NCBI GenBank assembly: GCA_964628855.1
Contig: CAZVMV010000006.1
Coordinates: 4,539 to 68,538, forward strand
Reading direction: 5' to 3'
Origin: an uncultured Gammaproteobacteria bacterium
GTDB lineage: Bacteria > Patescibacteriota > Patescibacteriia > UBA10025 > JAHIVO01
Length of the DNA stretch: 64,000 bases
Shown here: piece by piece, positions 6,501-46,969 of the stretch
How the letters are laid out: each line of letters begins with the position of its first letter
Numbering within the stretch: the stretch's first letter is position 1
Notes under the pieces: model-generated
Database searches by the model: none
The model's input: the letters and a program-made list of their open reading frames with translations, nothing else
What the model was told of the DNA's origin: nothing
Translations under genes and position numbers: made by a program

Positions 6501-7562
6501 ATGCCATTATTCAATAAAAAGAATGAGGGCTTGATCGGTATAGATTTTGGCTCGGGCGCAATAAAAATCGTTGAACTCGTGAGCAATGGCAGTGCTGTTG
6601 AATTGGTCACATACGGCATGGGAGTGAAAGATCGCGTGACGGTCAAAACCGATGCGGTACGCAATCAAAGGGCTACGGTCGAACAGCTGACACATGTCCT
6701 GAAAGAAGCGCGGGCGAATACTACGCGTGTAGTGGCCGCCCTGCCAGCGGTGAACGTTTTCACGACTGTCATAAGCTTGCCTCAAATGCCGAAAAGCGAG
6801 ATTGAGGATGCCATCAGATGGGAAGCGAAAAAAATGGTCCCTTTACCACTGGAAAAAATGGCCATTGATTGGCATCCGGTACCTTCCGATCCCAGCGACC
6901 CGAAGGGTAAGGATAAAATAAAAATAATCATGACTGCCGCACCGTCAGACGTCATCCAGGGATATTTATCGATGATGAAAATCGCCGGTCTGCAGCTGGT
7001 CGGCTTGGAAACTGAGGCAACCGCCCTCAGGCGGTCATTACTTCCGATGGCCCACGGTTGCCAATTACTTCTGGATATGGGCGCTTCAACGTCAAATGTA
7101 ATAATTTTCGACCAGGGGTTGCCGATCGTCACCCGAAATATCGAAGTCGGCGGAGAAGCGATCAACCGCAACATCGCGAATGCCATGAACATTTCCATCG
7201 AACGCGCTGGCCAGTTCCGGGATGATGTCGGCCTCCCGGCTAATGGAGTCGCATCACACCCCGTCCATCAGGCAATTATATTTGTCGTCGACAACCTCAT
7301 CATTCAGGAACTTTCCCGCGTTTTAAACTCATACCTGATGGGTGGCGGACGGCCAGTAGACCAGATAATGATCGCCGGCGGATGCAGCCACATAAAAAAC
7401 CTCGACATCTACCTGTCGGCTCAGACAAAATTAAAAACCATTGTCGGGGACCCCTGGCAGGAAATTCATTTTCATCCGGAACTGAAACAGAACCTGGACA
7501 AACTGGCGCCGCAGATGGCTGTCGCCATCGGACTTGCGTTAAAAGTAAAAACGCTAAAATAA
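6501..7562 (+). CDS. pilM: type IV pilus assembly protein PilM (actin-like ATPase fold)
   Basis: 353 aa. Motifs GIDFGSGAIKIVEL, DMGASTSNV and IAGGCS. Confidence 0.85.
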   Translation: MPLFNKKNEGLIGIDFGSGAIKIVELVSNGSAVELVTYGMGVKDRVTVKTDAVRNQRATVEQLTHVLKEARANTTRVVAALPAVNVFTTVISLPQMPKSEIEDAIRWEAKKMVPLPLEKMAIDWHPVPSDPSDPKGKDKIKIIMTAAPSDVIQGYLSMMKIAGLQLVGLETEATALRRSLLPMAHGCQLLLDMGASTSNVIIFDQGLPIVTRNIEVGGEAINRNIANAMNISIERAGQFRDDVGLPANGVASHPVHQAIIFVVDNLIIQELSRVLNSYLMGGGRPVDQIMIAGGCSHIKNLDIYLSAQTKLKTIVGDPWQEIHFHPELKQNLDKLAPQMAVAIGLALKVKTLK

Positions 7563-18983: not shown

Positions 18984-19751
18984 TTAAATAATTTCTTGTT
19001 CAATTATTTCCCGGGCGAGCCGTTCGTAAGCCCTACCGCCGGGCGAGCGGCGGTCATAGTGCAAAATACTTTTACCGTAACTGGGGGCTTCTGCCAGCTG
19101 GACATTCCTGGGGATGACTGTGCGAAATATCTTATTTGGGAAAAACTGATACAGCTGGTTAAAAACATCTTTGGAAAGCCGACTTCGTTCATCATACATC
19201 GTCATCACCGCACCAAGTATTTTGAGATCTGGCTTAAGGTTTTGACGCACCAAATCGATCGTTTCAAGAAGTTGGCTCAGCCCTTCTAAGGCGTAATATT
19301 CAGTTTGGACCGGTATCAATGCCTCATCTGCCGCCACCAGTCCGTTTACGGTCAACAAACAAAGACTCGGAGGGCAATCTATTAGGATATAATCATAATC
19401 ATGCCTAACCTCTAGGATGGCATTATGCAGACGGAATTCCCTCGTTTCCACTTCAACAAGTTCTACCCTGGCTCCAGCCAAATCTATGGTCGAAGGAACC
19501 ACGCGTAGACCGTCTACCTCTGTCGGATGTATAACTTCACGAATCGACATTTCGGTCACTAATGGGTGGTATACGCCTCGTTCAATGGAACGATAATCCA
19601 GGCCAATACCTGATGAAGCGTTGCCCTGGGGGTCCAAATCAATTAACAGTACAAATTTGCCAAGATGGGCCAAGTAAGCGGCAACATTAACCGCGGTCGT
19701 GGTTTTACCCACCCCGCCTTTTTGGTTTACGATGGCAATTACACGTGGCAT
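18984..19751 (-). CDS. parA: chromosome partitioning ATPase ParA/Soj
   Basis: 255 aa with deviant Walker A KGGVGKTTTAVN and DLDPQGNAS. Confidence 0.92.
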   Translation of the reverse strand: MPRVIAIVNQKGGVGKTTTAVNVAAYLAHLGKFVLLIDLDPQGNASSGIGLDYRSIERGVYHPLVTEMSIREVIHPTEVDGLRVVPSTIDLAGARVELVEVETREFRLHNAILEVRHDYDYILIDCPPSLCLLTVNGLVAADEALIPVQTEYYALEGLSQLLETIDLVRQNLKPDLKILGAVMTMYDERSRLSKDVFNQLYQFFPNKIFRTVIPRNVQLAEAPSYGKSILHYDRRSPGGRAYERLAREIIEQEII

Positions 19752-19968: not shown

Positions 19969-22302
19969 TTATTTCTTAACCGTCAACGTCAGATTAAGCG
20001 TCCCAACGGCGGCATATTCATGGCGGTCAGTCCTGTCTGGCCACCAGTTCAACACGTACTTCGTGGTTTGCTGTGGGCGGAAAGGGGCGGTGAATTTTCC
20101 GTTCTTGTCAGTCTTGATCGTACCGATTAGTACATACTTAGTGCCGTTCAGACGATACATGCCGACCGTCTTGTTCGCCAGAGCTTTCCTGGTAGAACCG
20201 TCGATCAGATTGCCAGTCAACGTGACATACTTATTTTTCTTTACATTATTTGCGCTAAATTTTAGATTTACCATCTTTGACCTGGTCTTCATGCCGATCA
20301 GCCCATGTTTACTCCCGACCACCAATCCGTCAAATACGACCGAATTGAATGTTTCCGACTTCAATCCTTGATATAACAAACCCCATGAGGCTCCCTGGTC
20401 GCTTGACTTAAGCATGATGCCATGATTGGCATAATCAGTTGCCGTCAAATAAAGGGTGTTTGGCGTGGTGTTTTTCTGTACAGTAATTGCACCAAAACGC
20501 AGATAACCGGCAGGGGCGAGTTTGGTCCAAGTCGCACCACTGTCAGTGGATTTGAAAAATCCGTCAAGCATCTGTGGCGCAAGGTCATTTGAGGCTGTGG
20601 CGTAAACCGTTGTCTGGGTTTCAGGGTCAACGAGGATGCTATTGATGTTCAATTGGGTATCAATGCCTGTCAATTTAGTCCAGGTTCCGTTCTCATACTT
20701 ATAGATGCCCTTAGTTGACGACACTGCGGGCTTGCCTTCACCCGTGCCGGCATACATGATACCGGAAGTGGTCATAGACAAAACAGTGGCCGGGGCATCA
20801 TCGGAGATAGCGAGATCAGTCCAGGTAACGCCTGCATCCACACTCTTCAGGACTGCACCTTTATGATCAACAGGGTCAATCAAGGCTAAATATACCGTGC
20901 TCGTGTTTGCCGGATCAGTCAGAAAATACCTAGGACGTAAATTGTTCCAGTCCCCTGATTTGAATTTTGCGACGTTAACCACTGATGGGATTTGGCCTGT
21001 CCAAGTGGTGCCAGCGTCAGTACTGCGGTACACCCAACCACCGATTGAACCGGCCAGAACAATATTCGCATCGTCTGGCTTGACCCATACGGATTCGCCA
21101 ATACCACTGGAATCGCAACGAGTCAGTGGGTCGCATGGCAAGACCGGCCAAGTCCATGTGGGTACGGCAGCATTAAAATTAGTAGTTTTTGCCAAACCGT
21201 TGCTAGATGAAATCCAAGCTGTGGTTTTGTCGGTCGTATAGCTAATTGCCAAAACGTTTACTCCAGTGATGCCATTCAGACTGTTGCTCCAAGTCAAACC
21301 TCCGTTTGTACTCTTGCAAACGCCGCTCATACAGTCACCGTACAATACCGTTTCATCAGCAGAGTTAACCACCACTGTCTTTCCTGGACCACGCATGACA
21401 TTCGTATGCACGTCCATATCAGTCCATGTAGAGCCATTGTTAGTGGAATATCCGGAACACGCATACCACTTTGACGATGTCCAGACGGAATAATTGCCAC
21501 ATGGGCGCGAGGCTGACGTGCCGATATTTGTCCATGTAGAACCGGCGTTGGTCGATAACCACAAAGCATTATCACCACTTAATGTGATTATGTTGGCATC
21601 ATAAGGATCGGCATTAACATTTGTAAAAGACGAGACGCTAGCATCAACCGAAACGGCAGCCCAAGTTGTGCCGCCATCGGTGGTAACATATAGTTTAGCC
21701 ACTCCGGTCGTATCATTACGAGTAACGGCATAAAAAGTGCCGGATGTTTTTGAAGCAGCATAACTCATGATATTTTCGCCTGCAGCGATGGCCACATGAG
21801 TAAATGTCGCGCCGTTGTCACTGCTAAATATTGTCGTATCGTTCCAAGTCGTAAAAAGCTTTCCCTGGGCAAAAAGCATTGGACTGCCCATATTAGTCCC
21901 AAGCTGAGTCAGTGTTGCCCCATAATCGGTGCTCTTATACACCCCATCGAGCGCCACGAAAACGGTATGGGTGGCTGGATCAACTTCAACGGCGGTCCCT
22001 GACCCTAAATCATAAGTGCCAGCCGGCCGCTGCCAAGTGGCCGCCGCATCGGTCGAGTAAAAGAATCCGTTTGGGACACCGCTGGCTATGGTATAAACAT
22101 GATCTCCATCAACTGCAATATCCCAATTATCTCCGCCATAAATCCCCAGATTGGTCGAAATTGCTTTTTGTTGTGCCTCTGGCACCGCTGCCGGGACCTC
22201 ATCGGCCTGTGCCATGGTGATGGCTAGGGTCCCTGCCAAAATAAATCCAATACCAACAGCCCATAGTACGACGATACTAGGCCGTTTAAACCCCTTTGTC
22301 AT
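19969..22302 (-). CDS. secreted/anchored BNR (Asp-box) repeat beta-propeller protein
   Basis: 777 aa with an N-terminal signal anchor. At least 10 S-x-D-x-G-x-T-W repeats are present (STDAAATW, TTDGGTTW, STNAGSTW, STDAGTTW, SVDAGVTW, STDSGATW, SSDQGASW). The C-terminus is an Ig-like domain. Confidence 0.8.
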   Translation of the reverse strand: MTKGFKRPSIVVLWAVGIGFILAGTLAITMAQADEVPAAVPEAQQKAISTNLGIYGGDNWDIAVDGDHVYTIASGVPNGFFYSTDAAATWQRPAGTYDLGSGTAVEVDPATHTVFVALDGVYKSTDYGATLTQLGTNMGSPMLFAQGKLFTTWNDTTIFSSDNGATFTHVAIAAGENIMSYAASKTSGTFYAVTRNDTTGVAKLYVTTDGGTTWAAVSVDASVSSFTNVNADPYDANIITLSGDNALWLSTNAGSTWTNIGTSASRPCGNYSVWTSSKWYACSGYSTNNGSTWTDMDVHTNVMRGPGKTVVVNSADETVLYGDCMSGVCKSTNGGLTWSNSLNGITGVNVLAISYTTDKTTAWISSSNGLAKTTNFNAAVPTWTWPVLPCDPLTRCDSSGIGESVWVKPDDANIVLAGSIGGWVYRSTDAGTTWTGQIPSVVNVAKFKSGDWNNLRPRYFLTDPANTSTVYLALIDPVDHKGAVLKSVDAGVTWTDLAISDDAPATVLSMTTSGIMYAGTGEGKPAVSSTKGIYKYENGTWTKLTGIDTQLNINSILVDPETQTTVYATASNDLAPQMLDGFFKSTDSGATWTKLAPAGYLRFGAITVQKNTTPNTLYLTATDYANHGIMLKSSDQGASWGLLYQGLKSETFNSVVFDGLVVGSKHGLIGMKTRSKMVNLKFSANNVKKNKYVTLTGNLIDGSTRKALANKTVGMYRLNGTKYVLIGTIKTDKNGKFTAPFRPQQTTKYVLNWWPDRTDRHEYAAVGTLNLTLTVKK

Positions 22303-26757: not shown

Positions 26758-27255
26758 CTATTCCTTACGTTTACCTAATTGGTGATCCAGCATCAGGATT
26801 GCGCTTCCCTTATCCCCGACCATTTTCAGCTTTTCCACAATTTCCAGTGTATTGGCCTCCTCCTCCACCTGCTCATCGATAAACCACTTCAAAAAACTCT
26901 GTGCGGAATAATCTTTTTCTTTGAGCGCCAGTTCATACAAGCCATCAATTAGTTTTGTAATCTTCTGCTCGTGCTGGTAGGCCAAACCGAAAGCCTGATG
27001 GGGAGGCGGCAATTTTACCGGCGGTTTTGGCAGTGCGGACAATTCAATTTTGCCGCCCTTTTCGATGATGAAATCCAGGAATTTTATAGCATGAGTGAGC
27101 TCCTCCTGATACTGAACGCGTAACCACGCCCCGAAGCCTTTCAGATTGAGCGACTCATAATACCCAGCCAATGCAAGGTATAACATGGCCGAATACTGTT
27201 CCTCGGCAATCTGCCTATTAAAGGCCGCTTCTAGTTTTTTGCTTATCATAAACAA
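26758..27255 (-). CDS. ferritin (non-haem)
   Basis: Ferritin-like four-helix di-iron ligands (EEQYSAMLY, QEELTHAIKF, EQKIT, FIDEQVEEE). It probably starts at ATG 27249. Confidence 0.85.
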   Translation of the reverse strand: MFMISKKLEAAFNRQIAEEQYSAMLYLALAGYYESLNLKGFGAWLRVQYQEELTHAIKFLDFIIEKGGKIELSALPKPPVKLPPPHQAFGLAYQHEQKITKLIDGLYELALKEKDYSAQSFLKWFIDEQVEEEANTLEIVEKLKMVGDKGSAILMLDHQLGKRKE

Positions 27256-27299
27256 TTATGTTAATTAATTAGGCCTTATTACTATACAACAATCTCCTA

Positions 27300-27911
27300 C
27301 TATTTGGTAGCCATCAAAATGCTTTCAACTGCTGTCCAATTTACCACCTGCCAAAAAGCTTTAATATAATCCGCACGGACATTCCTATATTTCAGGTAGT
27401 AGGCATGTTCCCACACATCCAGACCAAGGAGAGGAGTACGGCCGAGAGATAGGGGCGAATCCTGGTTTGCAGTCTTTTCGATTACGAGTTTCCTCCCACT
27501 GAGCGATAGCCAAGCCCAACCTGAACCAAACAGGTTAAGGGCGACATCGCTCATCTGCTCCTTAAGTTTTTCAAAACTGCCAAATTCCTGATTGATCGCC
27601 TCAGCCAACTCCCCTTTCGGTTCGCCGCCAGATTTCGGGCCCATAGTTGCCCAATACAGATTATGGTTGTAATGACCACCTCCAGCATTCTTCACGGCCA
27701 GCCTGATATCCTCAGGAATTGACGTCAAATCACGCAATAACACCTCTATTGGTTTTTCGAACAACTCCGGATGTTTTTCGACAGCCGCGTTTAATTTTTG
27801 CGTATAGGTATCGTGATGTTTGTCATGATGCAGTTTCACAGTAGCTGCGTCAATATGCGGTTCCAGAGCATCATAATCATAAGGCAATGGTGGGGTAATA
27901 TATTTATTCAT
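27300..27911 (-). CDS. Fe/Mn superoxide dismutase
   Basis: Motifs HHDKHH and DVWEHAYYL. Start trimmed to ATG 27911 because the longer ORF would overlap sufU. Confidence 0.92.
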   Translation of the reverse strand: MNKYITPPLPYDYDALEPHIDAATVKLHHDKHHDTYTQKLNAAVEKHPELFEKPIEVLLRDLTSIPEDIRLAVKNAGGGHYNHNLYWATMGPKSGGEPKGELAEAINQEFGSFEKLKEQMSDVALNLFGSGWAWLSLSGRKLVIEKTANQDSPLSLGRTPLLGLDVWEHAYYLKYRNVRADYIKAFWQVVNWTAVESILMATK

Positions 27912-27921
27912 AAATTTATCG

Positions 27922-28311
27922 TTAATTATTTTTTTTATGTTCCGCATGGGTGGCCTGCCGCAAAGTTTCCAGAGCCAGCAATGCACATTTACGTCTGGCT
28001 GGCGTGATGGGCACGCCCATGTCTTTAATAAAATCGTTATCAGTGTACTTCTCTAGGTCCTGGATACTCTTGCCTGGCGCCTTTTCTGTCAAAATTGAGG
28101 CTGCCGCCCTGGCAATACTGCATCCGGCTCCGTCGAATTTGACTTCCTGCAGCTTTTTCTTCGATTTATCGGTACGATAGCTAATCCTAATACGATCGCC
28201 GCATAATGGATTATTTCGTTCAGCCATGCCATCCGGCCGTTTAACTTCGCCGAAATTCTTCGGTGACCGGGAGTGGTCAATGATGATTTGTCTGTACATG
28301 TCAAAACTCAT
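27922..28311 (-). CDS. sufU: SUF-system Fe-S scaffold/sulfur-transfer protein SufU
   Basis: 129 aa. Motifs NPLCGD, GAGCSIARAAAS and RRKCALLALETL. Confidence 0.88.
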   Translation of the reverse strand: MSFDMYRQIIIDHSRSPKNFGEVKRPDGMAERNNPLCGDRIRISYRTDKSKKKLQEVKFDGAGCSIARAAASILTEKAPGKSIQDLEKYTDNDFIKDMGVPITPARRKCALLALETLRQATHAEHKKNN

Positions 28312-29555
28312 AATTTGAATATTTCCTTAGCCTTCTTTAAAGCGACGACCAGCGCATGGACATCGGCTTCAGTATTATATATATAGAAACTTGCCCGAGT
28401 AGTGGATTCGACTCCCAATTTTTCATGCAATGGCTGAGCACAATGATGGCCTGCCCTGACTGCCACGCCCTGCTCATCCAAAATCGAAGCCAGGTCGTGT
28501 GGGTGGATATCTTTCATACTGAAAGCTACGGCACCACCCCTGTCCTTAACCTCTCGCGGACCATAAATAGTCAAACCAGAAATCGAACTCAATTCTTTGA
28601 TCGCCAGCGTAGTGATCTCCTGTTCATGTGAAAAAACCCGATCCATCCCGATCGCCTGCAAATAATCGATGGCCGCACCCAACCCGATCGTACCAGCAAT
28701 ATTTGGCGTTCCCGCTTCAAATTTCCACGGAAGTTCATTCCATCTTGCCTCACGTAACGTCACCTGCGAAATCATGTCTCCACCCGTGAGGAAGGGCGGC
28801 ATGTTTTCAAGAATTTCGCGTTTGCCATATAGAACGCCCACCCCTGTCGGCCCAAGCATCTTATGTGAAGAAAAAACGTAAAAATCTGCATCGGTCTTTT
28901 TCATGTCCACCGGAAAATGCGGCACGCTTTGCGCCCCGTCTACAAGCACGACCGCGTGAGGCGCTTTTTTCCTGACTTGTTTGATAATATCCCTTGCGGG
29001 ATTTATCGTACCGAGAACATTCGACATGTGCGTAAATGCCACGAGCTTTACCTGTTCGGTCAATAAGTCGTCCAAATGGGTTATATCCAGGCGTCCATTA
29101 GAACTAACTGGGATAAAAGACAACCGGGCACCCTTTTCCTTAGCCAAAACTTGCCATGGGACCAGATTGGCATGATGTTCCATTTCAGTCAGGATGATAT
29201 GATCTCCACGTTTGATGTTTTGCCTGCCCCAAGAATACGCCACTAAGTTTATGCTTTCGGTGGCATTCCTGGTGAATATTATTTCGGTAGCCGATGTGGC
29301 ATTGATGAAATCGGCAACCTTTTGCCGGACAAGCTCATATGCTTCAGAAGCCTTTTCGGACAAGGTATAGATGCCTCGATGCACATTGGCATAGTAAGTC
29401 TCATAAAATATTTTTACCGCATCGATTACCGCCCTCGGTTTCTGCGTACTAGCAGTAGAATCAAGGTATACTAAGGGTTTGCTGTTAATTTTTTGGGAAA
29501 AAATCGGGAATTCAGATCTGATCTTTTGCCATGTCCTGCTGTTAATTGATGTCAT
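28308..29555 (-). CDS. sufS: cysteine desulfurase SufS
   Basis: 415 aa. PLP-Lys in SSHKMLGPTG and the active-site Cys in RAGHHCAQP. Confidence 0.92.
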   Translation of the reverse strand: MTSINSRTWQKIRSEFPIFSQKINSKPLVYLDSTASTQKPRAVIDAVKIFYETYYANVHRGIYTLSEKASEAYELVRQKVADFINATSATEIIFTRNATESINLVAYSWGRQNIKRGDHIILTEMEHHANLVPWQVLAKEKGARLSFIPVSSNGRLDITHLDDLLTEQVKLVAFTHMSNVLGTINPARDIIKQVRKKAPHAVVLVDGAQSVPHFPVDMKKTDADFYVFSSHKMLGPTGVGVLYGKREILENMPPFLTGGDMISQVTLREARWNELPWKFEAGTPNIAGTIGLGAAIDYLQAIGMDRVFSHEQEITTLAIKELSSISGLTIYGPREVKDRGGAVAFSMKDIHPHDLASILDEQGVAVRAGHHCAQPLHEKLGVESTTRASFYIYNTEADVHALVVALKKAKEIFKL

Positions 29556-30259
29556 AATACGTGTGGAAATATTTTTGCTGAGTGCCCGGGTATACGGGCC
29601 AGGACTGGGTGAAAAAATCCATTAATTAAGTTCCTGACGGCTTGACGCCTTGATAAACCGCGGCTCATCAGATAAAAAATCTGCTCAGCATTCACGCGAC
29701 TTGTGGTCGAGCCATGCGTCGCTCTTACGTCATTGGCTAGGATTTCCAGAGTTGGGATTGAGGTTGCCATCCCCTGGCCAAAAAGCAGCACATTATCAGC
29801 GAAATATGAATTTGTCAAGTCAGCGTTTGGATGGATTTTCAAAAGCCCGTTGAATTGTCCGAAGGCGGAGTCCTCATAAACTCCTTTTATCAGTATATCA
29901 CCTTTTGTATTTTTTGCCTGATGGTGCATGGACACGTCAAATGCGTGGCGGTCTTTGCCGATACCGTGGAAAACTGCAGATATATATGCCTCCGCCCCGC
30001 TGCCTACAAGTTCTACGGATGTTTTTATTGTAGCGTTATTTGACCGATAAACGGCCATGCCCATATGCAGTCGCGCATGCTTATGAAGAACGAGTTGAAT
30101 GGAAGGATTCACGATCCGATCCAGGCTTTTCCCTACCCATACCAAATTCAGATTCCTGCCAGCCATGACGGTAATGGAAATATTCGAACTCTTATGTTTA
30201 AGTACGTCGATTTCCAAAGTCATGTCTTTTTTGATTTGCAGTCTTCTTGTAAGTGACAT
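29552..30259 (-). CDS. sufD: Fe-S cluster assembly protein SufD (short form)
   Basis: 235 aa with a SufB/D beta-helix core. It is translationally coupled between sufB and sufS. Confidence 0.75.
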   Translation of the reverse strand: MSLTRRLQIKKDMTLEIDVLKHKSSNISITVMAGRNLNLVWVGKSLDRIVNPSIQLVLHKHARLHMGMAVYRSNNATIKTSVELVGSGAEAYISAVFHGIGKDRHAFDVSMHHQAKNTKGDILIKGVYEDSAFGQFNGLLKIHPNADLTNSYFADNVLLFGQGMATSIPTLEILANDVRATHGSTTSRVNAEQIFYLMSRGLSRRQAVRNLINGFFHPVLARIPGHSAKIFPHVL

Positions 30260-30264
30260 ATTTT

Positions 30265-31656
30265 TTATCCTACGCTGCCTTCCATTTCCAGTTGGATCAG
30301 CCTGTTCAGTTCAACAGCATATTCAAGCGGTAATTCTTTGGCAATCGGCTCGATAAACCCCGAAACGACTAAATTCATGGCCTCGGCTTCGCTTAACCCA
30401 CGGCTTCTCAGATAAAACATCTGTTCTTCTCCGATCTTTCCGACTGACGCCTCATGGCCGATCTGAACATCACTTTCCTTGATTTCCATAGTCGGATAAG
30501 TATCAGAACGCGACCGCTCATCCAACAACAGTGCGTCGCATACGACATTAGATTTCACCCCAGTCATGCCGCGTGGCACCCGAACAAGACCACGATAAGA
30601 TGTGCGTCCTGTTTCCTTGGCAATTGACTTGGAAATTATCCGTGACGTGGTTTCAGGCGCTCCATGTATGGCTTTTCCACCGGCATCCTGGTGCTGACCG
30701 GCACCAGCCAAAGCAATGGATAATACTTCGCCGTGAGCTTTCCTCCCTAATAGATAAACAGACGGGTATTTCATGGTCAATTTACTCCCGAGATTTCCAT
30801 CTACCCACTCCATCACGCCTTCCTCATATACAAAACTTCGCTTGGTCACCAAATTGTAAACATTCTTTGACCAGTTCTGTACGGTGGTGTAGCGGACCCT
30901 TGCGCCCGGCTTAACGATAATTTCAACAACGGCGGAATGCAATGAATCAGTTGTATATACCGGCGCGGTGCAGCCCTCGACATAGTGCACAAAACTGCCA
31001 GGTTCGGCGATAATTAGCGTTCTCTCAAATTGGCCGGCGTTTTTGGCATTGATGCGGAAGTATGCCTGCAATGGGAATTCCACTTTCACGCCGGCTGGCA
31101 CATATACGAAGCTGCCGCCGCTCCAAACCGCGGTATTAAGTGCCGCAAATTTGTTGTCGCCGGCCGGGATGACGCGGCCAAAGTATTTCTTTACGATCTC
31201 TGGAAATTTCTTCAGCGCCGTATCCATATCCTCGAATATGACGCCATTCTTGCCCATGCGGTCTTTTAAATTATGGTAGACTGCCTCTGACTCGTATTGA
31301 GCCATTACGCCTGACAGGTATTTTTGCTCGGCCTGTGGGATGCCCAGTCTCTGATAGGTATTTCTGATGGCTGTCGGCACCTCTCCCCAGCTCTGGAAAA
31401 CCTTTTCCACCGGTTTCATGTAATAATAAATATCGTCAAATTTTATTTTTGACAGGTCGCCACCCCAGGACGGCATTTGTTTCTTTACGAAAGTCTGATA
31501 TGCTCGGATTCTGACGTCTCTCATCCAGGATGGTTCGGACTTCATATGAGAAATTTCACGGACCACCTTTTCGTTTATCCCTTTTTTCGCCTTATAAATA
31601 TATGAGACAGGATCCGGACGCGACAGTACTTCCTGATTTGAATTAGCGGTAGACAT
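30265..31656 (-). CDS. sufB: Fe-S cluster assembly protein SufB
   Basis: 463 aa. Conserved blocks include [11 protein letters not shown] and [14 protein letters not shown]. Confidence 0.93.
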
Positions 31657-31660
31657 ACGC

Positions 31661-32404
31661 CTAAATTTCTTTCTTCAGCCAGTCATATCCACGCTTTTCC
31701 ACTTGCTGGGCCAGTTCCTTGCCGCCCGATTTTACGATCCTACCGTCGATCATCACATGCACACGATCTGGCTTGATGAATTTAAGGATGCGCATGTAAT
31801 GTGTAATCACCACAAACGCCCGTTTGCGGCTACGTAAAGCATTTACCCCCGCGGAAACGATTTTGAGCGCATCTATATCCAAACCAGAATCAGTTTCGTC
31901 GAGAATGGCTAATTTTGGCTCTAATAAAGTTAGTTGTAACATTTCAAGTTTTTTCTTTTCCCCGCCGGAAAAACCTTCATTCAAGCCGCGCTGAGCCAGG
32001 TCGTGACGTAATTTCAATTTTGCCGCAGCGGCGATAAAACGGGCATGGAATTCCGCTACCGCGAGCGTATTCTTGGTATAGATGGAATTATAGGCAGTGC
32101 GTAAAAAATGCTCAATGGACAGGCCCCCCACCTCGCTTGGATACTGGAACGACAAAAAAATCCCTAGCCTTGCCCGTTCATCCGGCTCCTTGGAATTTAT
32201 ATTCTTTCCTTGCATGATCAAACTGCCGCGTGAAATATCAAAACCCGGATGCCCCATGATTACTGACGCTAAAGTTGACTTGCCGGATCCATTGGGGCCC
32301 ATTATCGCATGCACCTCGCCCGCACGGAAGGCCACATTGATCCCATTCAAAATTTTCTTTTTCCCCACCCCGGCATACAAATTTTTTACTTCAAACAAAT
32401 TCAT
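31661..32404 (-). CDS. sufC: Fe-S cluster assembly ATPase SufC
   Basis: Motifs [17 protein letters not shown] and [12 protein letters not shown]. Start trimmed to ATG 32404 (MNLFEVKNL). Confidence 0.92.
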
Positions 32405-32414
32405 TGGAAAAAAA

Positions 32415-32561
32415 TTAATAACAACAACTTTCCTTGTAACCGCACTGTTTACATACAGAACTTTTGCTCCCGCGGAGTGACGGCATATCGGCGCCGCAGG
32501 TCGGGCACGCTTGCCGGTCCTGATTATATTCTGACGGATAACTATTTGTGTGCTTTGACAT
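32415..32561 (-). CDS. candidate 48-aa zinc-ribbon protein
   Basis: Manual translation: MSKHTNSYPSEYNQDRQACPTCGADMPSLRGSKSSVCKQCGYKESCCY. It fills the fur-sufC gap exactly, overlapping the fur stop by 20 nt and ending 8 nt before the sufC ATG. It is too short to appear in the ORF track as a separate call. Confidence 0.4.
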   Translation of the reverse strand: MSKHTNSYPSEYNQDRQACPTCGADMPSLRGSKSSVCKQCGYKESCCY

Positions 32562-33096
32562 AATAATGACAATTAGTCTGGAAACAACATTCTCGACATA
32601 CTGGCGCCTCTTTGTGTAAGTCGTCCAGAAGCTCGCCACAGGCCATGCAGAATAGCTCTGGAGTTTTTGATTTTGGCGATAACTTTTTTTGGCAGGCAGA
32701 ACAGTATCCGCGTACCTCGAAATTATCTGACCGAACGAAAAAACTCCCACTCGCGGCCAAAGATTTTGCAACTTCGACAAGACGACTATCCATTATCTCG
32801 GAAATGGAATGGCACTTTTCGCAAACCAAATGAATATGCGAATCTACACGACTTTCGTACCGGCTGATTTTGTCGACCACGCATTCCTTGATATAACCAT
32901 GCTGCCTCAGGAAATCCAAATTGCGGTAAACCGTACCGAAGCTGATGTTACGGAGCTTTTTCCTTACCCCTCGGTAAATTTGTTCGGCAGTCGGGTGGCC
33001 TGGCTCGTGCCGCAGATATTCCAAAATGTCCAAACGCTGGCTAGTAAGGCGCCAATCACGGGTTGGATGGTTTTTTTCTACTTTTTTAGCCGGCAT
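32542..33096 (-). CDS. Fur-family (Fur/PerR-like) transcriptional regulator with an extra C-terminal Cys-rich extension
   Basis: 184 aa. A winged-helix N-terminus (TSQRLDILEYL..FGTVYRNLDFL) and the canonical CEKC...CSAC pair are followed by ~46 extra aa carrying CMAC..CREC..C. Confidence 0.85.
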   Translation of the reverse strand: MPAKKVEKNHPTRDWRLTSQRLDILEYLRHEPGHPTAEQIYRGVRKKLRNISFGTVYRNLDFLRQHGYIKECVVDKISRYESRVDSHIHLVCEKCHSISEIMDSRLVEVAKSLAASGSFFVRSDNFEVRGYCSACQKKLSPKSKTPELFCMACGELLDDLHKEAPVCRECCFQTNCHYYVKAHK

Positions 33097-36494: not shown

Positions 36495-37247
36495 TCAGTC
36501 GATTAATAATAGAAGCGCCATAATGCCTACGCCAAAAAGTAGCGACAGTAATTGAAGTACTGACTTGCCTGTATGCGATTCTTTCTTCAATTCCGGAATC
36601 AGATCGGCTGAAGCGATGTAAATAAAACCGCCGATGGTCAATGGCACAATAACCGTGTGAATGGACTCCATTGAACGTCCGATGATAAGAGTTACGACAG
36701 CTCCCAAAATGGCAACGCTGGCAGATAAGAAATTATAAAATAATGCTTTCACTCTTTGCATGCCGGTATGTAATAGGATGCCAAAATCACCTATTTCTTG
36801 GGGTATTTCATGTAGAATAACGGCAATCGTAGTAGTGATTCCCAATGGCACACTGACTAGGAAGCTGCCGGCAATAATCGTACCGTCAATAAAATTATGG
36901 AAAGCGTCACCGATTAGGTTTGTCGAGGCCAGCGGATGCGGATGGTCCTCTGAGGTAGGTATATGACAATGCCGCCACCATAATATCTTTTCCAGAATGA
37001 AAAACGAAAGCATGCCAGCCAAGATAAGCAATGACATTAATGTCATGTTATAGTCCGTATCCTTGATAGCCTCCGGCAACAGATGGATAAAAGCGTCACC
37101 CAATAAACCGCCAGCCGCAAAGCTTACCAAAAATAGGAGCACCTTCCTCAAGCGATCCATGCCTATTGAAAGCGTAAATACGCCGATCAGGGAGATCAGG
37201 CTGATGACAGTAACGCTCGCTATTGTCAGGATCCATGTTTGTAGCAT
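36495..37247 (-). CDS. ZIP family divalent metal transporter (ZupT-like)
   Basis: 250 aa with 8 TM helices and motifs HNFIDG and HEIPQEIGDF. TACAAT + 6 nt + ATG suggests a leaderless mRNA. Confidence 0.85.
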   Translation of the reverse strand: MLQTWILTIASVTVISLISLIGVFTLSIGMDRLRKVLLFLVSFAAGGLLGDAFIHLLPEAIKDTDYNMTLMSLLILAGMLSFFILEKILWWRHCHIPTSEDHPHPLASTNLIGDAFHNFIDGTIIAGSFLVSVPLGITTTIAVILHEIPQEIGDFGILLHTGMQRVKALFYNFLSASVAILGAVVTLIIGRSMESIHTVIVPLTIGGFIYIASADLIPELKKESHTGKSVLQLLSLLFGVGIMALLLLID

Positions 37248-37304: not shown

Positions 37305-38705
37305 CTATCTTAGATATCCCCATGTATGGAGCCGATCGCTGTCATTTGTCCAGCGTTCGCCAATATCAGTCCGATAAAAAACGTTCGGTAAAATAATATT
37401 GGCAGCACGGCTATAAGCTACTCGTCTGGCCTCCTCAACCGTAGATCCGCTACCAGCAACAACTAGCACATAGCCCGACGAACCCGCCACGCGCCAGACT
37501 CCATTCTCAATCTTTACATCCTCCAGGTGTATGCCTTCCAAATGGTGGTTTGATTTGAAGGTAATCGAGAGGTCGTGGTATGTCTGTACCAGTTCAGAAT
37601 CTGGATCCTGGGAAAAATACGTAGGTAACAATAGCCTCAAGCCGATCTGAAAACCTTTCTTGGTCCTTATTTCGTAATCCTCGCCTTTGGCCATCCGGTA
37701 CAGCCATTCACCGATAGGCATTTCCAGTCCCTCCAATTGGATTTGGATCGTTGGGTACCCAAACCGGCAGGTAAACTCAAGCGGGTAAATGCCGCGGGCA
37801 TTAACGATACAATTAATATCCACGTACCCGACATATCCTGCCGCTCGTAACGAGGTGTGCATCCTTTCCAGTGTTGCCCGAAAAAGGTTGTTCGGAGAAC
37901 TCCAGTACATGAGCGTGCCCATCTCCCCTGTAAACGGACCGAGATTGCCGGGAAAAATTCTCTTATGCTCAAAATTCACATTGATTGGGTAAAGGAAATC
38001 GTGTCCGTTGAAAAAAGCTCCGACAGCCACCTCCACCCCGGATACATATTTTTGAAGAACGAAAGTTGGCGCCCGTTTCTGCCAGGTCTGCTTGTTTGTC
38101 TCGAATAATTCCAATAAATCGCGGCCATCGTCTTCCTGCCCGATAAAAAGCAGGCTTTTCGGTGCGGTGCCGCTCGGCTTGAAAACATATCGGGACGGAT
38201 GTTGTTTAATAAAATCAATAGCGGCCTGATAATCTGTGAATTGCCACCAACGGAGAGTGTTGATGTCATGTTTTTTCAATTCGGCTTGGCCGAATTCCCT
38301 GTCATCTTCCAGTCGGTCAGTATAGGCGCTTCCCCCGATCACCAGTTTACCTGCCTTGCGTAGCGTATCAGCTTCCTCCCCAAAATGTATATCATCAAAC
38401 ACAATTACATCGGCCCAGTCTACATATGGCTTCCATTCATCCACCTTGTCGACAAAACCATTGTACACATCGGCATCCTCTTTTGATTCGACAAACACTT
38501 TCACTACATTTCCTTCCAGTTTCAGATGCCAAGCCAGATCACCATTATAACTGCGCCTTGAAACAAAAAGAAACTTTTTTGGCGGGAAATTACTAGCACT
38601 AAAAACCGGGGCTGGCGCGCGGGTGTTGCCAGAAGCTCCATTGGAGCCGTTTCCGTTTGAATGAGATGGGTGGTTTTTGCCGTTTGGTAGTTTTTCTTGG
38701 TTCAT
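37305..38705 (-). CDS. ATP-grasp protein, phosphoribosylamine-glycine ligase (PurD)-like
   Basis: 466 aa. A low-complexity N-terminus (NGNGSNGASGN) precedes a PurD-like core (FEHKRIFPGNLGPFTGEMGT, YVGYVDINCIV). Confidence 0.6.
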   Translation of the reverse strand: MNQEKLPNGKNHPSHSNGNGSNGASGNTRAPAPVFSASNFPPKKFLFVSRRSYNGDLAWHLKLEGNVVKVFVESKEDADVYNGFVDKVDEWKPYVDWADVIVFDDIHFGEEADTLRKAGKLVIGGSAYTDRLEDDREFGQAELKKHDINTLRWWQFTDYQAAIDFIKQHPSRYVFKPSGTAPKSLLFIGQEDDGRDLLELFETNKQTWQKRAPTFVLQKYVSGVEVAVGAFFNGHDFLYPINVNFEHKRIFPGNLGPFTGEMGTLMYWSSPNNLFRATLERMHTSLRAAGYVGYVDINCIVNARGIYPLEFTCRFGYPTIQIQLEGLEMPIGEWLYRMAKGEDYEIRTKKGFQIGLRLLLPTYFSQDPDSELVQTYHDLSITFKSNHHLEGIHLEDVKIENGVWRVAGSSGYVLVVAGSGSTVEEARRVAYSRAANIILPNVFYRTDIGERWTNDSDRLHTWGYLR

Positions 38706-38796: not shown

Positions 38797-38835
38797 CAGA
38801 AAACCAAAACCCCACCGGTTGAGGATGGGGCTTGG
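38797..38835 (-). terminator. putative terminator after the DUF378 gene
   Basis: On the minus strand CCAAGCCCCA-N11-TGGGGTTTTGG is followed by TTTTC. Confidence 0.45.
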
Positions 38836-38848
38836 TTTATATAAAGGG

Positions 38849-39061
38849 CTATTGTACATTCTTTGACTTGCCCGGGATGGTCACCGCCATATAGACAGCG
38901 GATAATCCGACCAGGCTGTACACGACCCGCGATAAGGCGGACATGTCACCAAAGATTGTCTTGACCAGGTCGAACTTGACGATACCGACGAGGCCCCAGT
39001 TAAGGGCACCGACGAGTACCAGGATCAAGGCGACCCAATCTATTGCATTCATCTTTTTCAT
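38849..39061 (-). CDS. DUF378 family small membrane protein
   Basis: 70 aa. IDWVALILVLVGALNWGLVG..VVYSLVGLSAVY. Confidence 0.75.
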   Translation of the reverse strand: MKKMNAIDWVALILVLVGALNWGLVGIVKFDLVKTIFGDMSALSRVVYSLVGLSAVYMAVTIPGKSKNVQ

Positions 39062-39079: not shown

Positions 39080-39484
39080 TTATTCTGGGATAAGTACGGA
39101 ATCAATCACGTGGATGACACCGTTATCGGCAGTAATGTCGGTTTTTATGACCTTTGCCTCACCGACCATTACTCCAGTATCCATGACGGCAATTGGTAGT
39201 GAACCGCCCTGTACTGTTTTGAGTGACTGCTGTTTAACGACATCAGCTGCAAGCATTGAACCGCTCACCACATGATAGGTCAGGACTGCGGTCAATTTAG
39301 CCTTGTCTTCAAGCAATGATTCGACAGTACCAGCAGGTAACTTGGCAAATGCCTCATCAGTCGGGGCAAATACGGTATATGGGCCTGGTCCAGATAGGGT
39401 GGACACCAGATCAGCGGCTTTGACCGCGGCCACTAGTGTCTTGAAGGTACCAGACTTCACCGCTATATCAACGATAGTAGACAT
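39080..39484 (-). CDS. fasciclin (FAS1) domain protein
   Basis: 134 aa. Motifs [22 protein letters not shown] and [11 protein letters not shown]. Confidence 0.85.
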
Positions 39485-39524
39485 AATTGTTGTAATTTAG
39501 TTTGTTAACGTGCTACTGCAAGTC

Positions 39525-39553
39525 TTGCGTGATTTCAGGATACCTGGTAACAT
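39525..39553 (+). promoter_or_regulatory. promoter TTGCGT-17-TAACAT; the ATG lies 7 nt after the -10 (leaderless)
   Basis: TTGCGT at 39525..39530, TAACAT at 39548..39553, ATG at 39560. Confidence 0.45.
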
Positions 39554-39559
39554 AAAAAC

Positions 39560-40414
39560 ATGCAAAACGTGCATTTGAGCCCTCCAGAACTAGCTCCCCT
39601 TTTCGGGGTCAATGTCTCCACCATCAAAAGATGGGTGGATAAAGGTTTTATTCAATCCGTTAAAACTTCTGGTGGCCACCGGAGGATTTCACGGGAACAA
39701 CTGGCGGCCTTTGTCCAGCGGTACCCGAAATACGTGCACAACTCATACGTCCTGTCCCGGCTGCTGAAAAACAAGCAGACCAAGCTGAAGGATTGGCAAA
39801 AATATTACCGCCACCTCCACCAGAACGAAGTCCGGCAGGCAGAACAGCAAGTCCAGCAACTATACCTGTCTAACGTGCCGATCACTACAATTTTGGACGA
39901 TTTGATCGCCCCTGCCCTGCGTCATATTGGCGACGAATGGTTTGCCGGACGAGTTTCAGTTTTTGAGGAACATCGGATGAGTTTTATTGTCAGGGTTCAG
40001 CTGCTTAAATTGGACCAGCTCATACCCGACCGGACCAGTGTCCGATCTCCACTTGCTATCCTAGCTTGTGCTGCTGGCGACCACCATGAACTCCCTTTAT
40101 TGATGGTTGGATTAATTTTGAAAAAAAATGGCTGGCGTACGACAAATTTAGGCATCAATATCTCATCTTCTGAAATGGATAAAGCCTGCCGCCTCCTCAA
40201 ACCACAATTGGTTTGTCTGACAAAAACTTATAGCCAGGGCCAGAATGCCTCAACCTACCTGACTTATCTACAGCCAACGATAAAAAAAATCAAAGCCCGT
40301 TTAGTAATAGGCGGGAATGGCTGGCCTTTAACATTGCAGAATAAACCAAAAACCGCTTGGTACCGACAGGTCTCCGATTTGAAGGAATTGAATGATTTTC
40401 TGAAAAAAATTTAA
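39560..40414 (+). CDS. CarH/LitR-like regulator: excisionase/MerR-type HTH + B12-binding domain
   Basis: 284 aa. HTH LSPPELAPLFGVNVSTIKRWVDKGF..GGHRRISREQL. Helical-bundle W-x9-EH motif (WFAGRVSVFEEH). Rossmann B12 domain with a GDHHELP (DxH), CLT, VIGGNG pattern. Confidence 0.65.
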   Translation: MQNVHLSPPELAPLFGVNVSTIKRWVDKGFIQSVKTSGGHRRISREQLAAFVQRYPKYVHNSYVLSRLLKNKQTKLKDWQKYYRHLHQNEVRQAEQQVQQLYLSNVPITTILDDLIAPALRHIGDEWFAGRVSVFEEHRMSFIVRVQLLKLDQLIPDRTSVRSPLAILACAAGDHHELPLLMVGLILKKNGWRTTNLGINISSSEMDKACRLLKPQLVCLTKTYSQGQNASTYLTYLQPTIKKIKARLVIGGNGWPLTLQNKPKTAWYRQVSDLKELNDFLKKI

Positions 40415-45843: not shown

Positions 45844-46131
45844 TTACGGCTGGACTGTAGGCTGGGTCCGGGCTTTACGCCTAGCCCACCATTGGTGAAG
45901 ATACATGTACAGCCCAGTAATCACCATCAAAGCCAAAATCACGGAAAAATACGTGCTGATCTTATTATGAACAAACCTCAATTGGCCGGCATTTAGTTTT
46001 GGGAATTTTTCTAGAAAAAATGCTGGGTAGCGCATCACCACGCCCGTGCCTGCCATGACCAGCATCAATGCGGTGATGATCAAAACTAACAGCCGGTGAA
46101 TTTTTCTGGCAATAAGAAATAATTTAGTCAT
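45844..46131 (-). CDS. small two-TM membrane protein (PepSY-TM-like helix)
   Basis: Starts MTKLFLIARKIHRLLVLII at ATG 46131. It overlaps the cytochrome-b5 gene stop by 8 nt. Confidence 0.5.
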   Translation of the reverse strand: MTKLFLIARKIHRLLVLIITALMLVMAGTGVVMRYPAFFLEKFPKLNAGQLRFVHNKISTYFSVILALMVITGLYMYLHQWWARRKARTQPTVQP

Positions 46132-46969
46132 CTTCTTGTTCGTTATCCTCCCGCCCACTATTTGTGGTAGTCGATGGGGAAGTATTTGTAGTCTGGCTAA
46201 TAGTTTGGGGCGTCACGTTACTGTTAAGGGTGCCTAATTTATAGGCCGCTAATTGCTGGGAGGCAAAGGTAGAATGCTGTCCTTTGCCGCCTTGCGTCGC
46301 AAATGCCGTAGTCGCATCCTTGCCGCAATAAGGTATGATTATCGCCCGGCCACCAGGATGCGCATTTAAGTAATTAGTCACAGCGTATACGCCACTATTG
46401 ATAATTATCCAACAGTCACTGGCAATGCTATGTTTTGCCACTGTGGCTGAATCAAGTTGAATTGAAGAAGCTGAATTTGTCGGCATAGTACTCGTATTTG
46501 TTACTGTGGTAGGAGAAGTCGTGGAGTTAGTATTAGTGTTCACAATTTCCTGTGTCACAGAAGAATTAAGAGCGCCGACTAAATAGTTTGATAATAATTG
46601 TTCGGCCTCGTTGGAATGCTGGCCTTGCCCTCCTTTAGTAGCAAAAGCGGCAGTAGCGTCCTTGCCGCAATAAGGTATTATCATGTCACGTCCGCCAGGG
46701 TGTTTTGAAAGATAATTTGAAACTGCATACACGCTGCCCTGGACAATAATCCAACAGTCAGAAGCAGAAGCGTGCTGAGCTACAACGGCTTCCGTCAACC
46801 TGGAAGCATTTGTTGAGTTCAGGAGAATATTTGTTGTGTTGGTGTTTGTTGTTGCCACCGAATTGCCTAATAAGTCACGCTGTTGATTATTATAGGAGCC
46901 AACAAAAATAACCACTAAAATAATGGTGATAATAATGCCTATTGTGCCGATAATTAATTCCCATTTCAT
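46124..46969 (-). CDS. membrane-anchored protein with two cytochrome b5-like haem-binding domains
   Basis: 281 aa. An N-terminal TM helix is followed by two copies of H-x-SDCWI..VY.V.NYL..HPGGR.IIPYCGKDAT.AF (HPGG signature), separated by Thr/Asn-rich linkers. Confidence 0.75.
   Translation of the reverse strand: MKWELIIGTIGIIITIILVVIFVGSYNNQQRDLLGNSVATTNTNTTNILLNSTNASRLTEAVVAQHASASDCWIIVQGSVYAVSNYLSKHPGGRDMIIPYCGKDATAAFATKGGQGQHSNEAEQLLSNYLVGALNSSVTQEIVNTNTNSTTSPTTVTNTSTMPTNSASSIQLDSATVAKHSIASDCWIIINSGVYAVTNYLNAHPGGRAIIIPYCGKDATTAFATQGGKGQHSTFASQQLAAYKLGTLNSNVTPQTISQTTNTSPSTTTNSGREDNEQEDD
46226..46801 (-). repeat. internal tandem duplication (two ~235-nt b5-domain units, 46226..46459 and 46565..46801)
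   Basis: The two units align at both DNA and protein level (e.g. tccttgccgcaataaggta.. occurs in both). Confidence 0.7.

Follow-up and report, generated by a model that had tools for sequence, protein, structure and literature searches.

A predicted CarH-like, adenosylcobalamin-dependent regulator with a BldC-type DNA-binding domain beside fasciclin and DUF378 genes in Patescibacteria

Introduction

Recognisable sensors and transcription factors are scarce in Patescibacteria, which are not known to make carotenoids or vitamin B12. In the 64-kb stretch of contig CAZVMV010000006.1 analyzed here (the window), a gene was found that encodes a protein of 284 amino acids (aa) with a predicted DNA-binding domain and a B12-binding module, hereafter called the regulator, and that is divergent from a gene pair encoding a fasciclin and a DUF378 protein. 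The locus raises the question whether scavenged adenosylcobalamin (AdoCbl) is used as a light sensor, as a sensor of cofactor supply or as both by a bacterium for which no genes of B12 synthesis are seen in the window, and which role fasciclin and DUF378 play.

With moderate confidence, the regulator is explained here as a CarH-type, AdoCbl-dependent and autoregulated repressor, composed of a BldC-like DNA-binding domain and a B12 module of the CarH/CtMerR type, which would be released by light or by lack of AdoCbl; the fasciclin-DUF378 pair would be the likeliest co-regulated target. The observations behind this explanation are the domain architecture, the placement of the motifs, the fold, the family-wide conservation, the synteny and the repeats, whose nucleotides are conserved at the predicted start site in two distant clades. 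The kind of molecule (CarH/CtMerR-like) is already known and was correctly guessed by a first-pass annotation that was made from the sequence alone. New are a BldC-type domain whose predicted operator is built from 9-bp repeats, the fusion of this operator to a leaderless start codon, the fasciclin-DUF378 partners and the Patescibacteria as hosts.

Domain architecture and structure of the regulator

The positions of all features are listed in Table 1. All Pfam matches reported for the regulator and its neighbours exceed the gathering scores. At the N-terminus, HTH_17 was detected at residues 6-54 (E 4e-10, score of 40.1 against a cutoff of 27), and the MerR (E 5e-7, 29.8 against 28.2) and MerR_1 (25.1 against 21.6) models matched as well, which marks a MerR-type winged helix. 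Further downstream, B12-binding_2 (residues 81-141, E 4e-7) and B12-binding (residues 166-253, E 4e-9) could be assigned. The proposed combination of an excisionase/MerR-type helix-turn-helix (HTH) and a B12-binding module is thereby borne out, and the domain search, which could have spoken against a B12-binding fold, supports it. A structural model, proposed as a check by the first-pass annotation, was computed with AlphaFold2 using a family alignment of 43 sequences and reached a mean predicted local distance difference test (pLDDT) of 91.7 and a predicted TM-score (pTM) of 0.88. In a Foldseek search of this model against the PDB, full-length CarH of Thermus thermophilus (TtCarH) and the B12 domain of CtMerR from Chloracidobacterium thermophilum were found on top, with target-normalised TM-scores of 0.79-0.83.

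Two other assignments were rejected. Some homologues carry a JGI label as corrinoid methyltransferase proteins (MtbC/MtgC/MtaC), but the regulator scores 30.8 bits against a cutoff of 370 for MtgC and 12.5 against 450 for MtaC, and it has an HTH domain. A classical MerR protein is not indicated either, as the C-terminus is a B12 module rather than a coiled-coil dimerisation helix with an effector site. The operator of such proteins, a palindrome in a promoter spacer of 19-20 bp, is not matched by the 17-bp spacer of the regulator promoter and by a conserved element that is located at the start site.

By its sequence, the DNA-binding domain is BldC/HTH_17-like and not a classical CarH MerR domain. 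Searched alone against the PDB, it aligned with BldC (6AMK/6AMA) without gaps over 51 residues (6-56, E 1.5e-7), a match that outranks the domain of CtMerR itself and SoxR. The wing T-x-GGHRR is shared with BldC of Streptomyces. The score for the NCBIfam BldC subfamily (NF033787) is 41.9 bits against a cutoff of 77, so that the similarity is real at the level of the domain and does not extend to membership in this subfamily. BldC is a stand-alone domain of 68 residues without a sensor, whereas the domain of the regulator is fused to the B12 module, from which oligomerisation would come. BldC protomers each occupy a 9-bp direct repeat AATTxxxx(C) in head-to-tail orientation (Schumacher et al. 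2018, PMC5859096).

Comparison of the B12 module with CarH and CtMerR

The motif Wx9EH is the adenosyl-capping motif of CarH-type photoreceptors, and CarH homologues are defined by Wx9EH together with ExHx2Gx41SxV/Tx22-27GG (PMC8156234). In the regulator, Wx9EH is present with the exact spacing that had been claimed (W127-x9-E137-H138). In HMMER alignments to TtCarH (5C8D) and CtMerR (8JBS), W127, E137, H138 and H176 share their columns with W131, E141, H142 and H177 of TtCarH and are thus in register with their CarH equivalents. The D-x-H seen 38 residues further on was confirmed (H138 to H176), as was the replacement of Gly by Pro (P179). The remaining motif layout had to be corrected in part. 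GGNG at 251-254 holds, but CLT at 219-221 (C219-L220-T221) is not the SxV/T position, which is occupied by T221-K222-T223, x41 after P179 and followed by x27 to G251-G252. The second CarH motif therefore reads D174-x-H176-x2-P179-x41-T221-x-T223-x27-GG in the regulator, with all spacings exact and with Gly replaced by Pro and Ser by Thr.

The best sequence match in the PDB is CtMerR (8JBS/8JBT, E 3.5e-27, HMMER), followed by photocobilins and TtCarH (5C8D, E 4e-10). CtMerR binds AdoCbl, is tetrameric in darkness and becomes monomeric under green light (Yu et al., FEBS J 2024, PMC11796333); a DNA site or regulon is not given in this publication. Both proteins consist of an HTH_17-type N-terminal domain and a CarH-like B12 domain, both keep GxxW, EH and GxxH, and both lack a His directly behind the Trp (Arg in CtMerR, PMC11796333; Phe in the regulator), so that neither can form a bis-His light state. 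They differ in that the B12 domains are only ~24-26% identical (Foldseek alignment), that the regulator has Ser at the Pro of GxxxP, and that its clade is restricted to Patescibacteria, with fasciclin-DUF378 as a constant neighbour.

With the CarH/LitR proteins of T. thermophilus (PDB 5C8D/E/F), Bacillus megaterium and Myxococcus xanthus, the regulator shares Wx9EH and the axial His in register and the divergent orientation to a candidate target gene. The CarH operator consists of tandem direct repeats that overlap a sigma-A promoter; for the regulator, the two or three tandem repeats at -5 to +22 would be its counterpart. In contrast to CarH, the predicted repeats are 9 bp instead of 11 bp long and have another sequence, the DNA-binding domain is nearer to BldC, and no carotenoid genes are located beside the gene. 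By analogy, the regulator would work like CarH and CtMerR; strictly, it is a member of neither, as the CarH equivalog cutoff is not reached and one element of the light-response signature is missing (see below).

Distribution and conservation of the regulator family

A search of a collection of 5.8 billion proteins revealed 153 relatives of the regulator at E <= 1e-5. The first 102 are 35-86% identical, nearly all of them contain HTH_17 and B12 domains, and where named they belong to Patescibacteria, including Kerfeldbacteria. Below these, a group with 26-30% identity from Marinimicrobia and relatives was found. In a profile search of 1.84 billion representatives, ~38 clusters (50% identity) scored above 213 bits, followed by a gap, and 394 clusters were obtained at E <= 1e-30. 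The conservation of W127, E137, H138, H176 and G198 among the 102 Patescibacteria homologues (Table 1) indicates that the cofactor pocket is under purifying selection, which speaks against a decayed module like that of CarA.

For the comparison of loci, a scan with one genome per GTDB species yielded 29 Patescibacteria loci (L007-L035), 27 of which are independent of the lineage of the window, and ~50 loci from Ignavibacteria, Bacteroidota, Marinimicrobia and Calditrichota, hereafter the sister clade. Six of the former (L009, L012, L017, L021, L024 and L026) belong to metagenome-assembled genomes (MAGs) whose record titles read 'uncultured Gammaproteobacteria bacterium'. In these cases, the regulator, its neighbours and its promoter look as they usually do in the Patescibacteria clade, and the bins are probably mislabelled. 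In the searchable library, no paper was found in which CarH or B12 photoreceptors are connected with Patescibacteria or the Candidate Phyla Radiation, and a search for literature on Patescibacteria and cobalamin gave nothing relevant.

Promoter and predicted operator at the start of the regulator gene

When the Patescibacteria loci were aligned on the ATG of the regulator, a -35-like cTTGc at -36 to -31, an extended -10 tGnTAnanT at -15 to -7, AAAC at -4 to -1 and an invariant ATGCAAAACGTGCATTT at +1 to +17 were revealed. The pair of -35 and extended -10 is located at a fixed distance from the ATG in 25 loci. Due to the end of the -10 box 6 nt before the ATG, the messenger RNA (mRNA) of the regulator is predicted to be leaderless; the fixed distance in 25 loci supports the leaderless start already suspected for the single locus. 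Among the 53 genes surveyed in the window, a GGAG/GAGG/AGGA-like motif within 20 nt before the start was detected for two, so that the window is nearly free of Shine-Dalgarno motifs, and several genes (e.g., 36495-37247, 6501-7562 and 18984-19751) have TATAAT-like boxes 6-15 nt before the ATG. From these sequence features, leaderless mRNAs or mRNAs with a very short leader may be the rule in the source organism.

The conserved block from -5 to +13 consists of two 9-bp direct repeats, AAAAC-RTGC and AAAWC-GTGC. In both clades, these are followed by a degenerate third repeat at +14 to +22, with four A/T bases, a pyrimidine, an A, two variable positions and a final C. A 15-mer at the start of the regulator gene is identical in 24 of 30 loci and has at most two base differences in five of the remaining six, with proteins that are 35-53% identical. 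For codons 2-5, synonymous variation is zero (CAA 27/27, AAC 24/24, GTG 25/25, CAT 26/26), whereas it is near saturation for all other conserved residues of the regulator. The constraint therefore acts on the nucleotides and not on the peptide MQNVH. Rare variants turn Asn3 into Ile and yet keep the flanking bases.

The frozen 15-mer was initially taken for a palindrome, ATGCA-N5-TGCAT. This was demoted in favour of the two 9-mers because the last two arm positions vary in the sister clade, whereas the upstream AAAAC is conserved there. The form of the predicted repeats (AAAA-CRTG-C) resembles that of the BldC repeats, with an AT-rich stretch of 4 bp, a further 4 bp and a C, and the sequence comparison suggests that the regulator would bind to them. 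TtCarH tetramers bind to three tandem direct repeats that overlap the promoter (PMC8156234).

The element in the sister clade

The sister-clade regulators have the same HTH_17-B12 architecture and are 25-30% identical to the regulator. Here too, the promoter and a direct-repeat element are found at the predicted transcription start. In at least 15 loci, GTGCAAAWCGTGCAT preceded by AAAAC is found 20-40 nt upstream of the start codon and is thus non-coding. Its distance from the boxes, which are TTGACA-like and TAtcTT-like here, is the same as in Patescibacteria, where the element lies over the predicted leaderless start codon instead. Conservation again covers the positions from -5 to +13 and weakens at +14/+15. 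In 6 of 50 upstream windows, the best match deviated at no more than one arm position, compared with 1.4% of the control windows.

The neighbours differ between the clades. Instead of fasciclin and DUF378, genes of the carotenoid type are found in the sister clade, with phytoene-desaturase-like oxidases in 23 of 49 loci, phytoene synthase in 16 and lycopene cyclase in 14. Cyclopropane-fatty-acid synthase, DUF1295, SOUL and SDR genes occur as well. Carotenoid genes are the canonical light-protection context of CarH/LitR regulators, and the context of the sister clade therefore supports a light-sensing origin of the whole HTH_17-B12 family.

Two further elements were observed in this clade. In six Ignavibacteria/Bacteroidota loci (L041, L045, L046, L050, L051 and L081; e.g., L046:13581-13595), a near-perfect palindrome ATGCAAATTTTGCAT is located a few kb from the B12 regulator and 139-225 nt (212-225 nt in five of the six) upstream of a conserved gene of ~860 aa. 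It may be a further site of the same regulator family or an unrelated operator. In the Ignavibacteria locus L058, four consecutive 9-mers (AAACGTGCG, GAACGTTTA, AAACGTGCA and AAACGTTTA) are found ~60 nt upstream of the regulator start, as many as the DNA-binding domains that a tetramer would have.

Fasciclin-DUF378 unit and genomic context

The regulator gene is separated from the divergent fasciclin gene by 75 bp. Directly after the DUF378 gene, a terminator-like hairpin marks the end of a bicistronic fasciclin-DUF378 unit. Of the 27 independent Patescibacteria loci, 22 carry fasciclin, DUF378, or fasciclin then DUF378 directly next to the regulator in divergent orientation, at a distance of 65-90 bp in most loci and of 150-170 bp in two, and the flanks outside the trio vary among the lineages. 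What had been a guess of candidate targets from one locus is thus raised to a family-wide association.

Two forms of fasciclin occur near the regulators. The shorter one, to which the fasciclin of the window belongs, has ~134 aa and no signal peptide, and the longer one has ~175-184 aa and a hydrophobic N-terminal segment. The closest single-domain PDB relatives of the fasciclin in the window are the Rhodobacter fasciclin protein 1W7D and CupS, a cytoplasmic subunit of the cyanobacterial NDH-1 complex, and astaxanthin-binding fasciclins are more distant. Due to this relatedness, a cytoplasmic fasciclin associated with a membrane complex is plausible. Literature on DUF378 and on fasciclin with LitR was searched for and nothing relevant was found.

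Further recurrent neighbours in the Patescibacteria loci are ZIP (9 loci), Fur (7), CorA (6) and DUF1858 (6) as well as YibE_F, Suf genes and hemerythrin; their counterparts in the window are ferritin, superoxide dismutase, SufSDBC, Fur and ZIP. A role of the ZIP transporter in the system is no more than possible. Searches of the 64-kb window for a B12 enzyme, transporter or adenosyltransferase, a photolyase, a carotenoid gene and a cobalamin riboswitch gave no hits, and the Rfam scan of the window returned tRNAs only. The first-pass statement that no genes for cobalamin synthesis or uptake are visible thus holds within the 64 kb.

Table 1. Predicted features of the regulator locus with their positions in the window and, for single residues, their conservation among the 102 Patescibacteria homologues.
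Feature	Position	Strand	Description
Regulator coding sequence	39560..40414	+	ATG start, 284 aa; BldC/HTH_17-like domain for DNA binding (aa 6-54), bundle of four helices (aa 81-141), B12-binding domain with Rossmann fold (aa 166-253)
Predicted regulator promoter	39525..39553	+	-35 TTGCGT (39525-30), 17-bp spacer, extended -10 TG (39545-46), -10 TAACAT (39548-53)
Predicted operator, tandem 9-bp direct repeats	39555..39581	+	overlaps transcription start, start codon and codons 2-5
Direct repeat DR1, AAAACATGC	39555-63	+	predicted operator repeat
Direct repeat DR2, AAAACGTGC	39564-72	+	predicted operator repeat
Direct repeat DR3, ATTTGAGCC	39573-81	+	predicted operator repeat, degenerate
DNA-binding domain, aa 6-54	39575..39721	+	best PDB match BldC (6AMK/6AMA); wing T-x-GGHRR conserved
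Wx9EH motif	39938..39973	+	GDEW = 124-127
W127	39938-40	+	kept in 95/102
E137	39968-70	+	kept in 99/102
H138	39971-73	+	kept in 102/102
G173-D174-H175-H176-E177-L178-P179	40076..40096	+	contains the axial His position
H176	40085-87	+	aligned to lower-axial His (TtCarH H177, CtMerR H204); kept in 97/102
G198-I-N-I-S202	40151..40165	+	GxxxP position, Ser in place of Pro
G198			kept in 102/102
Position 202			Pro in 50, Ser in 35 of 102
Fasciclin (FAS1), single-domain protein	39080..39484	-	134 aa, no signal peptide; Pfam Fasciclin E 2e-42; divergent neighbour, candidate target
DUF378 two-helix small membrane protein	38849..39061	-	70 aa; Pfam DUF378 E 8e-24; second gene of the divergent unit
Terminator-like hairpin and T-run	38807..38833	-	immediately after DUF378
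Putative fasciclin promoter	39494..39521	-	read by eye, position not conserved; -35 TTGCAG (39521..39516), 16-bp spacer, -10 TAAATT (39499..39494)
ZIP metal transporter	36495..37247	-	recurrent neighbour, about 9/28 clustered Patescibacteria loci

Proposed mechanism and alternative explanations

According to the favoured explanation, AdoCbl would be bound with H176 below the corrin and with W127, E137 and H138 capping the adenosyl group, and the protein would oligomerise, by analogy to a tetramer. The oligomer would place its DNA-binding domains head-to-tail on the two tandem 9-bp repeats and the degenerate third one, which reach from -5 to about +22 in its own, presumably leaderless gene, and would repress itself by keeping RNA polymerase from the start site. 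The holo-oligomer would be lost, and the DNA freed, when light photolyses the Co-C bond or when AdoCbl is lacking. AdoCbl binding, dark oligomerisation and light-induced disassembly are proposed by analogy to CtMerR and TtCarH, and the regulator would respond to light in the same way. Since it is monocistronic, with a convergent ABC exporter gene downstream that overlaps its stop codon, it must have another output. The likeliest co-regulated target would be the divergent fasciclin-DUF378 unit on the other side of the common 75-bp control region; it is synteny that suggests this control.

A number of findings weigh against this explanation. P179 replaces the Gly of ExHxxG, with Pro in 89 of the 102 clade members and Ala in CtMerR. 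The light-response signature of cobalamin-binding domains obtained with SignatureFinder comprises GxxW, EH, GxxH and GxxxP (PMC11796333) and is incomplete in the regulator, in which G124xxW127, E137H138 and G173xxH176 are present and GxxxP reads G198-I-N-I-S202. The Trp is followed by F128, at a position where the clade members differ (A, S, E, Q, F, R), and an equivalent of TtCarH His132 is missing; because of this Phe, a bis-His light state of the TtCarH type is excluded. For the NCBIfam CarH equivalog NF052513, 69.7 bits were obtained against a cutoff of 400, and the regulator is therefore no CarH orthologue. Furthermore, the 64-kb window contains no B12-related gene, the full operator motif occurs in it only once, with no other sites beyond chance, and a second clear operator at the fasciclin/DUF378 promoter was not found. 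A generic sigma-70 consensus scan flagged neither the regulator nor the fasciclin promoter. Several MAGs with homologues are named as if they came from groundwater or deep mines without light, the habitat being inferred from the record names alone.

In another reading, the regulator would sense the availability of B12 (AdoCbl) and not light, so that in dark habitats the holo-form would repress as long as scavenged AdoCbl suffices and the apo-form would free the DNA when it is scarce. In this case, the fasciclin-DUF378 unit, joined in some lineages by ZIP, CorA or YibE_F, would serve the acquisition of cofactor or metal or the contact with a host. Patescibacteria are not known to synthesise B12, which would suit such a sensor, as would the MAG titles 'Afr_mines_BE2012' and 'GW1 ... 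OW334', which suggest a dark subsurface, the recurrence of metal-homeostasis genes as neighbours (ZIP, Fur, CorA and DUF1858, see above) and the absence of carotenoid or photolyase genes from the window and the Patescibacteria loci. Apo-CarH of Thermus is a monomer with poor operator binding (PMC8156234), and the loss of the cofactor alone would thus derepress. On the other hand, Wx9EH, which is tied to the light-sensing CarH proteins, is under strong purifying selection, the closest characterised relative CtMerR is a proven photoreceptor, the sister clade is found beside carotenoid genes, and the habitat is again read from record names alone. Sensing of B12 supply without light is therefore a real though minor possibility. 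It is compatible with the same molecular mechanism, and protein-bound AdoCbl is intrinsically photolabile, so that the light and B12 readings are not exclusive. By comparison, it is hardly credible that the B12 module is degenerate and cofactor-independent like that of the myxobacterial CarA paralogue, or that it binds only hydroxocobalamin (OHCbl) or methylcobalamin (MeCbl). The two signature substitutions P179 for Gly and S202 for Pro would fit such a decay, but CarA lacks Wx9EH (PMC8156234), whereas the regulator keeps it together with the axial His, both conserved in the clade. Moreover, CtMerR has Ala at the Gly position and yet binds AdoCbl, and the negative control, which bound only OHCbl, has Arg in place of the axial His (PMC11796333).

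Two further alternatives concern the DNA element and its targets. The frozen element could act in the RNA, as a 5'-terminal hairpin (AUGCA/UGCAU) or as a recognition signal of leaderless mRNAs for stability or translation, and not as a DNA operator. It begins at the predicted +1 in both clades, the arms can pair, rare variants are mostly located in the 5-nt loop, and 5' ends matter for initiation where only 2 of 53 genes have Shine-Dalgarno motifs. This is nevertheless quite improbable: the hairpin has -2.9 kcal/mol, no better than shuffled sequences, covariation is absent and the sequence itself is conserved across phyla, AAAAC, which precedes the predicted start, is conserved and the two final arm positions fade in the sister clade (GTGCTT, GTGCAA), a pattern that suits two 9-mers better than a palindrome or stem, and 9-bp direct repeats have a precedent for a BldC-like domain. 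It is also conceivable that fasciclin and DUF378 are mere syntenic neighbours and that the real targets are elsewhere in the genome, with a purely autoregulatory element. A second copy of the operator was not detected at the divergent promoter: the full-motif scan of each locus gave the regulator start as the sole site, repeat-like 9-mers were not enriched over shuffles in the intergenic regions across the loci, no conserved block appeared when the loci were anchored on the divergent start codon, and k-mer discovery recovered only the -35 of the regulator itself. The spacer of the putative fasciclin promoter contains one repeat-like 9-mer, TTAACGTGC (39505-13, + strand). In addition, the predicted operator is at least 30 bp away from the putative fasciclin -35, and the pair is missing in 5 of the 27 loci. 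We consider targets solely elsewhere unlikely all the same, as the trio keeps its divergent spacing of 65-90 bp in most lineages at 35-50% protein identity with changing outer flanks, and as a monocistronic regulator with an autoregulatory site alone and a convergent gene downstream would have no output. In Thermus, LitR/CarH controls a divergent promoter pair.

Significance

A predicted B12-dependent switch that is strongly conserved throughout the phylum and comes with a fixed gene pair and a predicted operator offers a testable handle on how Patescibacteria sense their environment or host. A farther-reaching proposal, which we regard as speculative and doubtful, is that Patescibacteria repurposed a CarH-type photoreceptor, in which AdoCbl from the host or community would give a joint signal of light and cofactor supply that gates a membrane or surface module of fasciclin and DUF378, and in which the operator in the leaderless start codon of the regulator would dictate the N-terminal MQNVH. 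If so, the module could serve, e.g., host attachment or membrane protection. B12 photobiology and optogenetics would gain a compact family of CarH-like proteins in which the DNA-binding domain is of the BldC type and for which a 9-bp direct-repeat site is predicted. Furthermore, the locus is an unusually clean example of a predicted operator inside a coding sequence that freezes synonymous sites.

Further observations in the window

The stop codon TAA of the regulator (40412-14) and that of the convergent ABC exporter (40411-13, minus strand) share TTAA, so that there is neither intergenic space nor a terminator between the two genes. Directly after the fasciclin-DUF378 unit, an ATP-grasp protein of 466 aa with a low-complexity N-terminus is encoded (37305-38705, minus strand). 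It is a relative of phosphoribosylamine-glycine ligase with 113 bits against the PurD cutoff of 288 and is found in the closest relatives only. Ferritin, Fe/Mn superoxide dismutase, SufS, SufD, SufB, SufC and Fur form a block of iron and oxidative-stress genes on one strand (26758-33096).

Two large proteins encoded on the minus strand may be surface proteins, one of 704 aa without a Pfam match (16003-18117) and one of 777 aa that matches only a Sortilin/Vps10-type repeat (19969-22302). A protein of 281 aa (46124-46969, minus strand) contains two cytochrome b5-like heme/steroid-binding domains, which is unusual in a reduced genome, and a MarR regulator, an NADPH-dependent FMN reductase and an ABC-2 transporter are encoded nearby.

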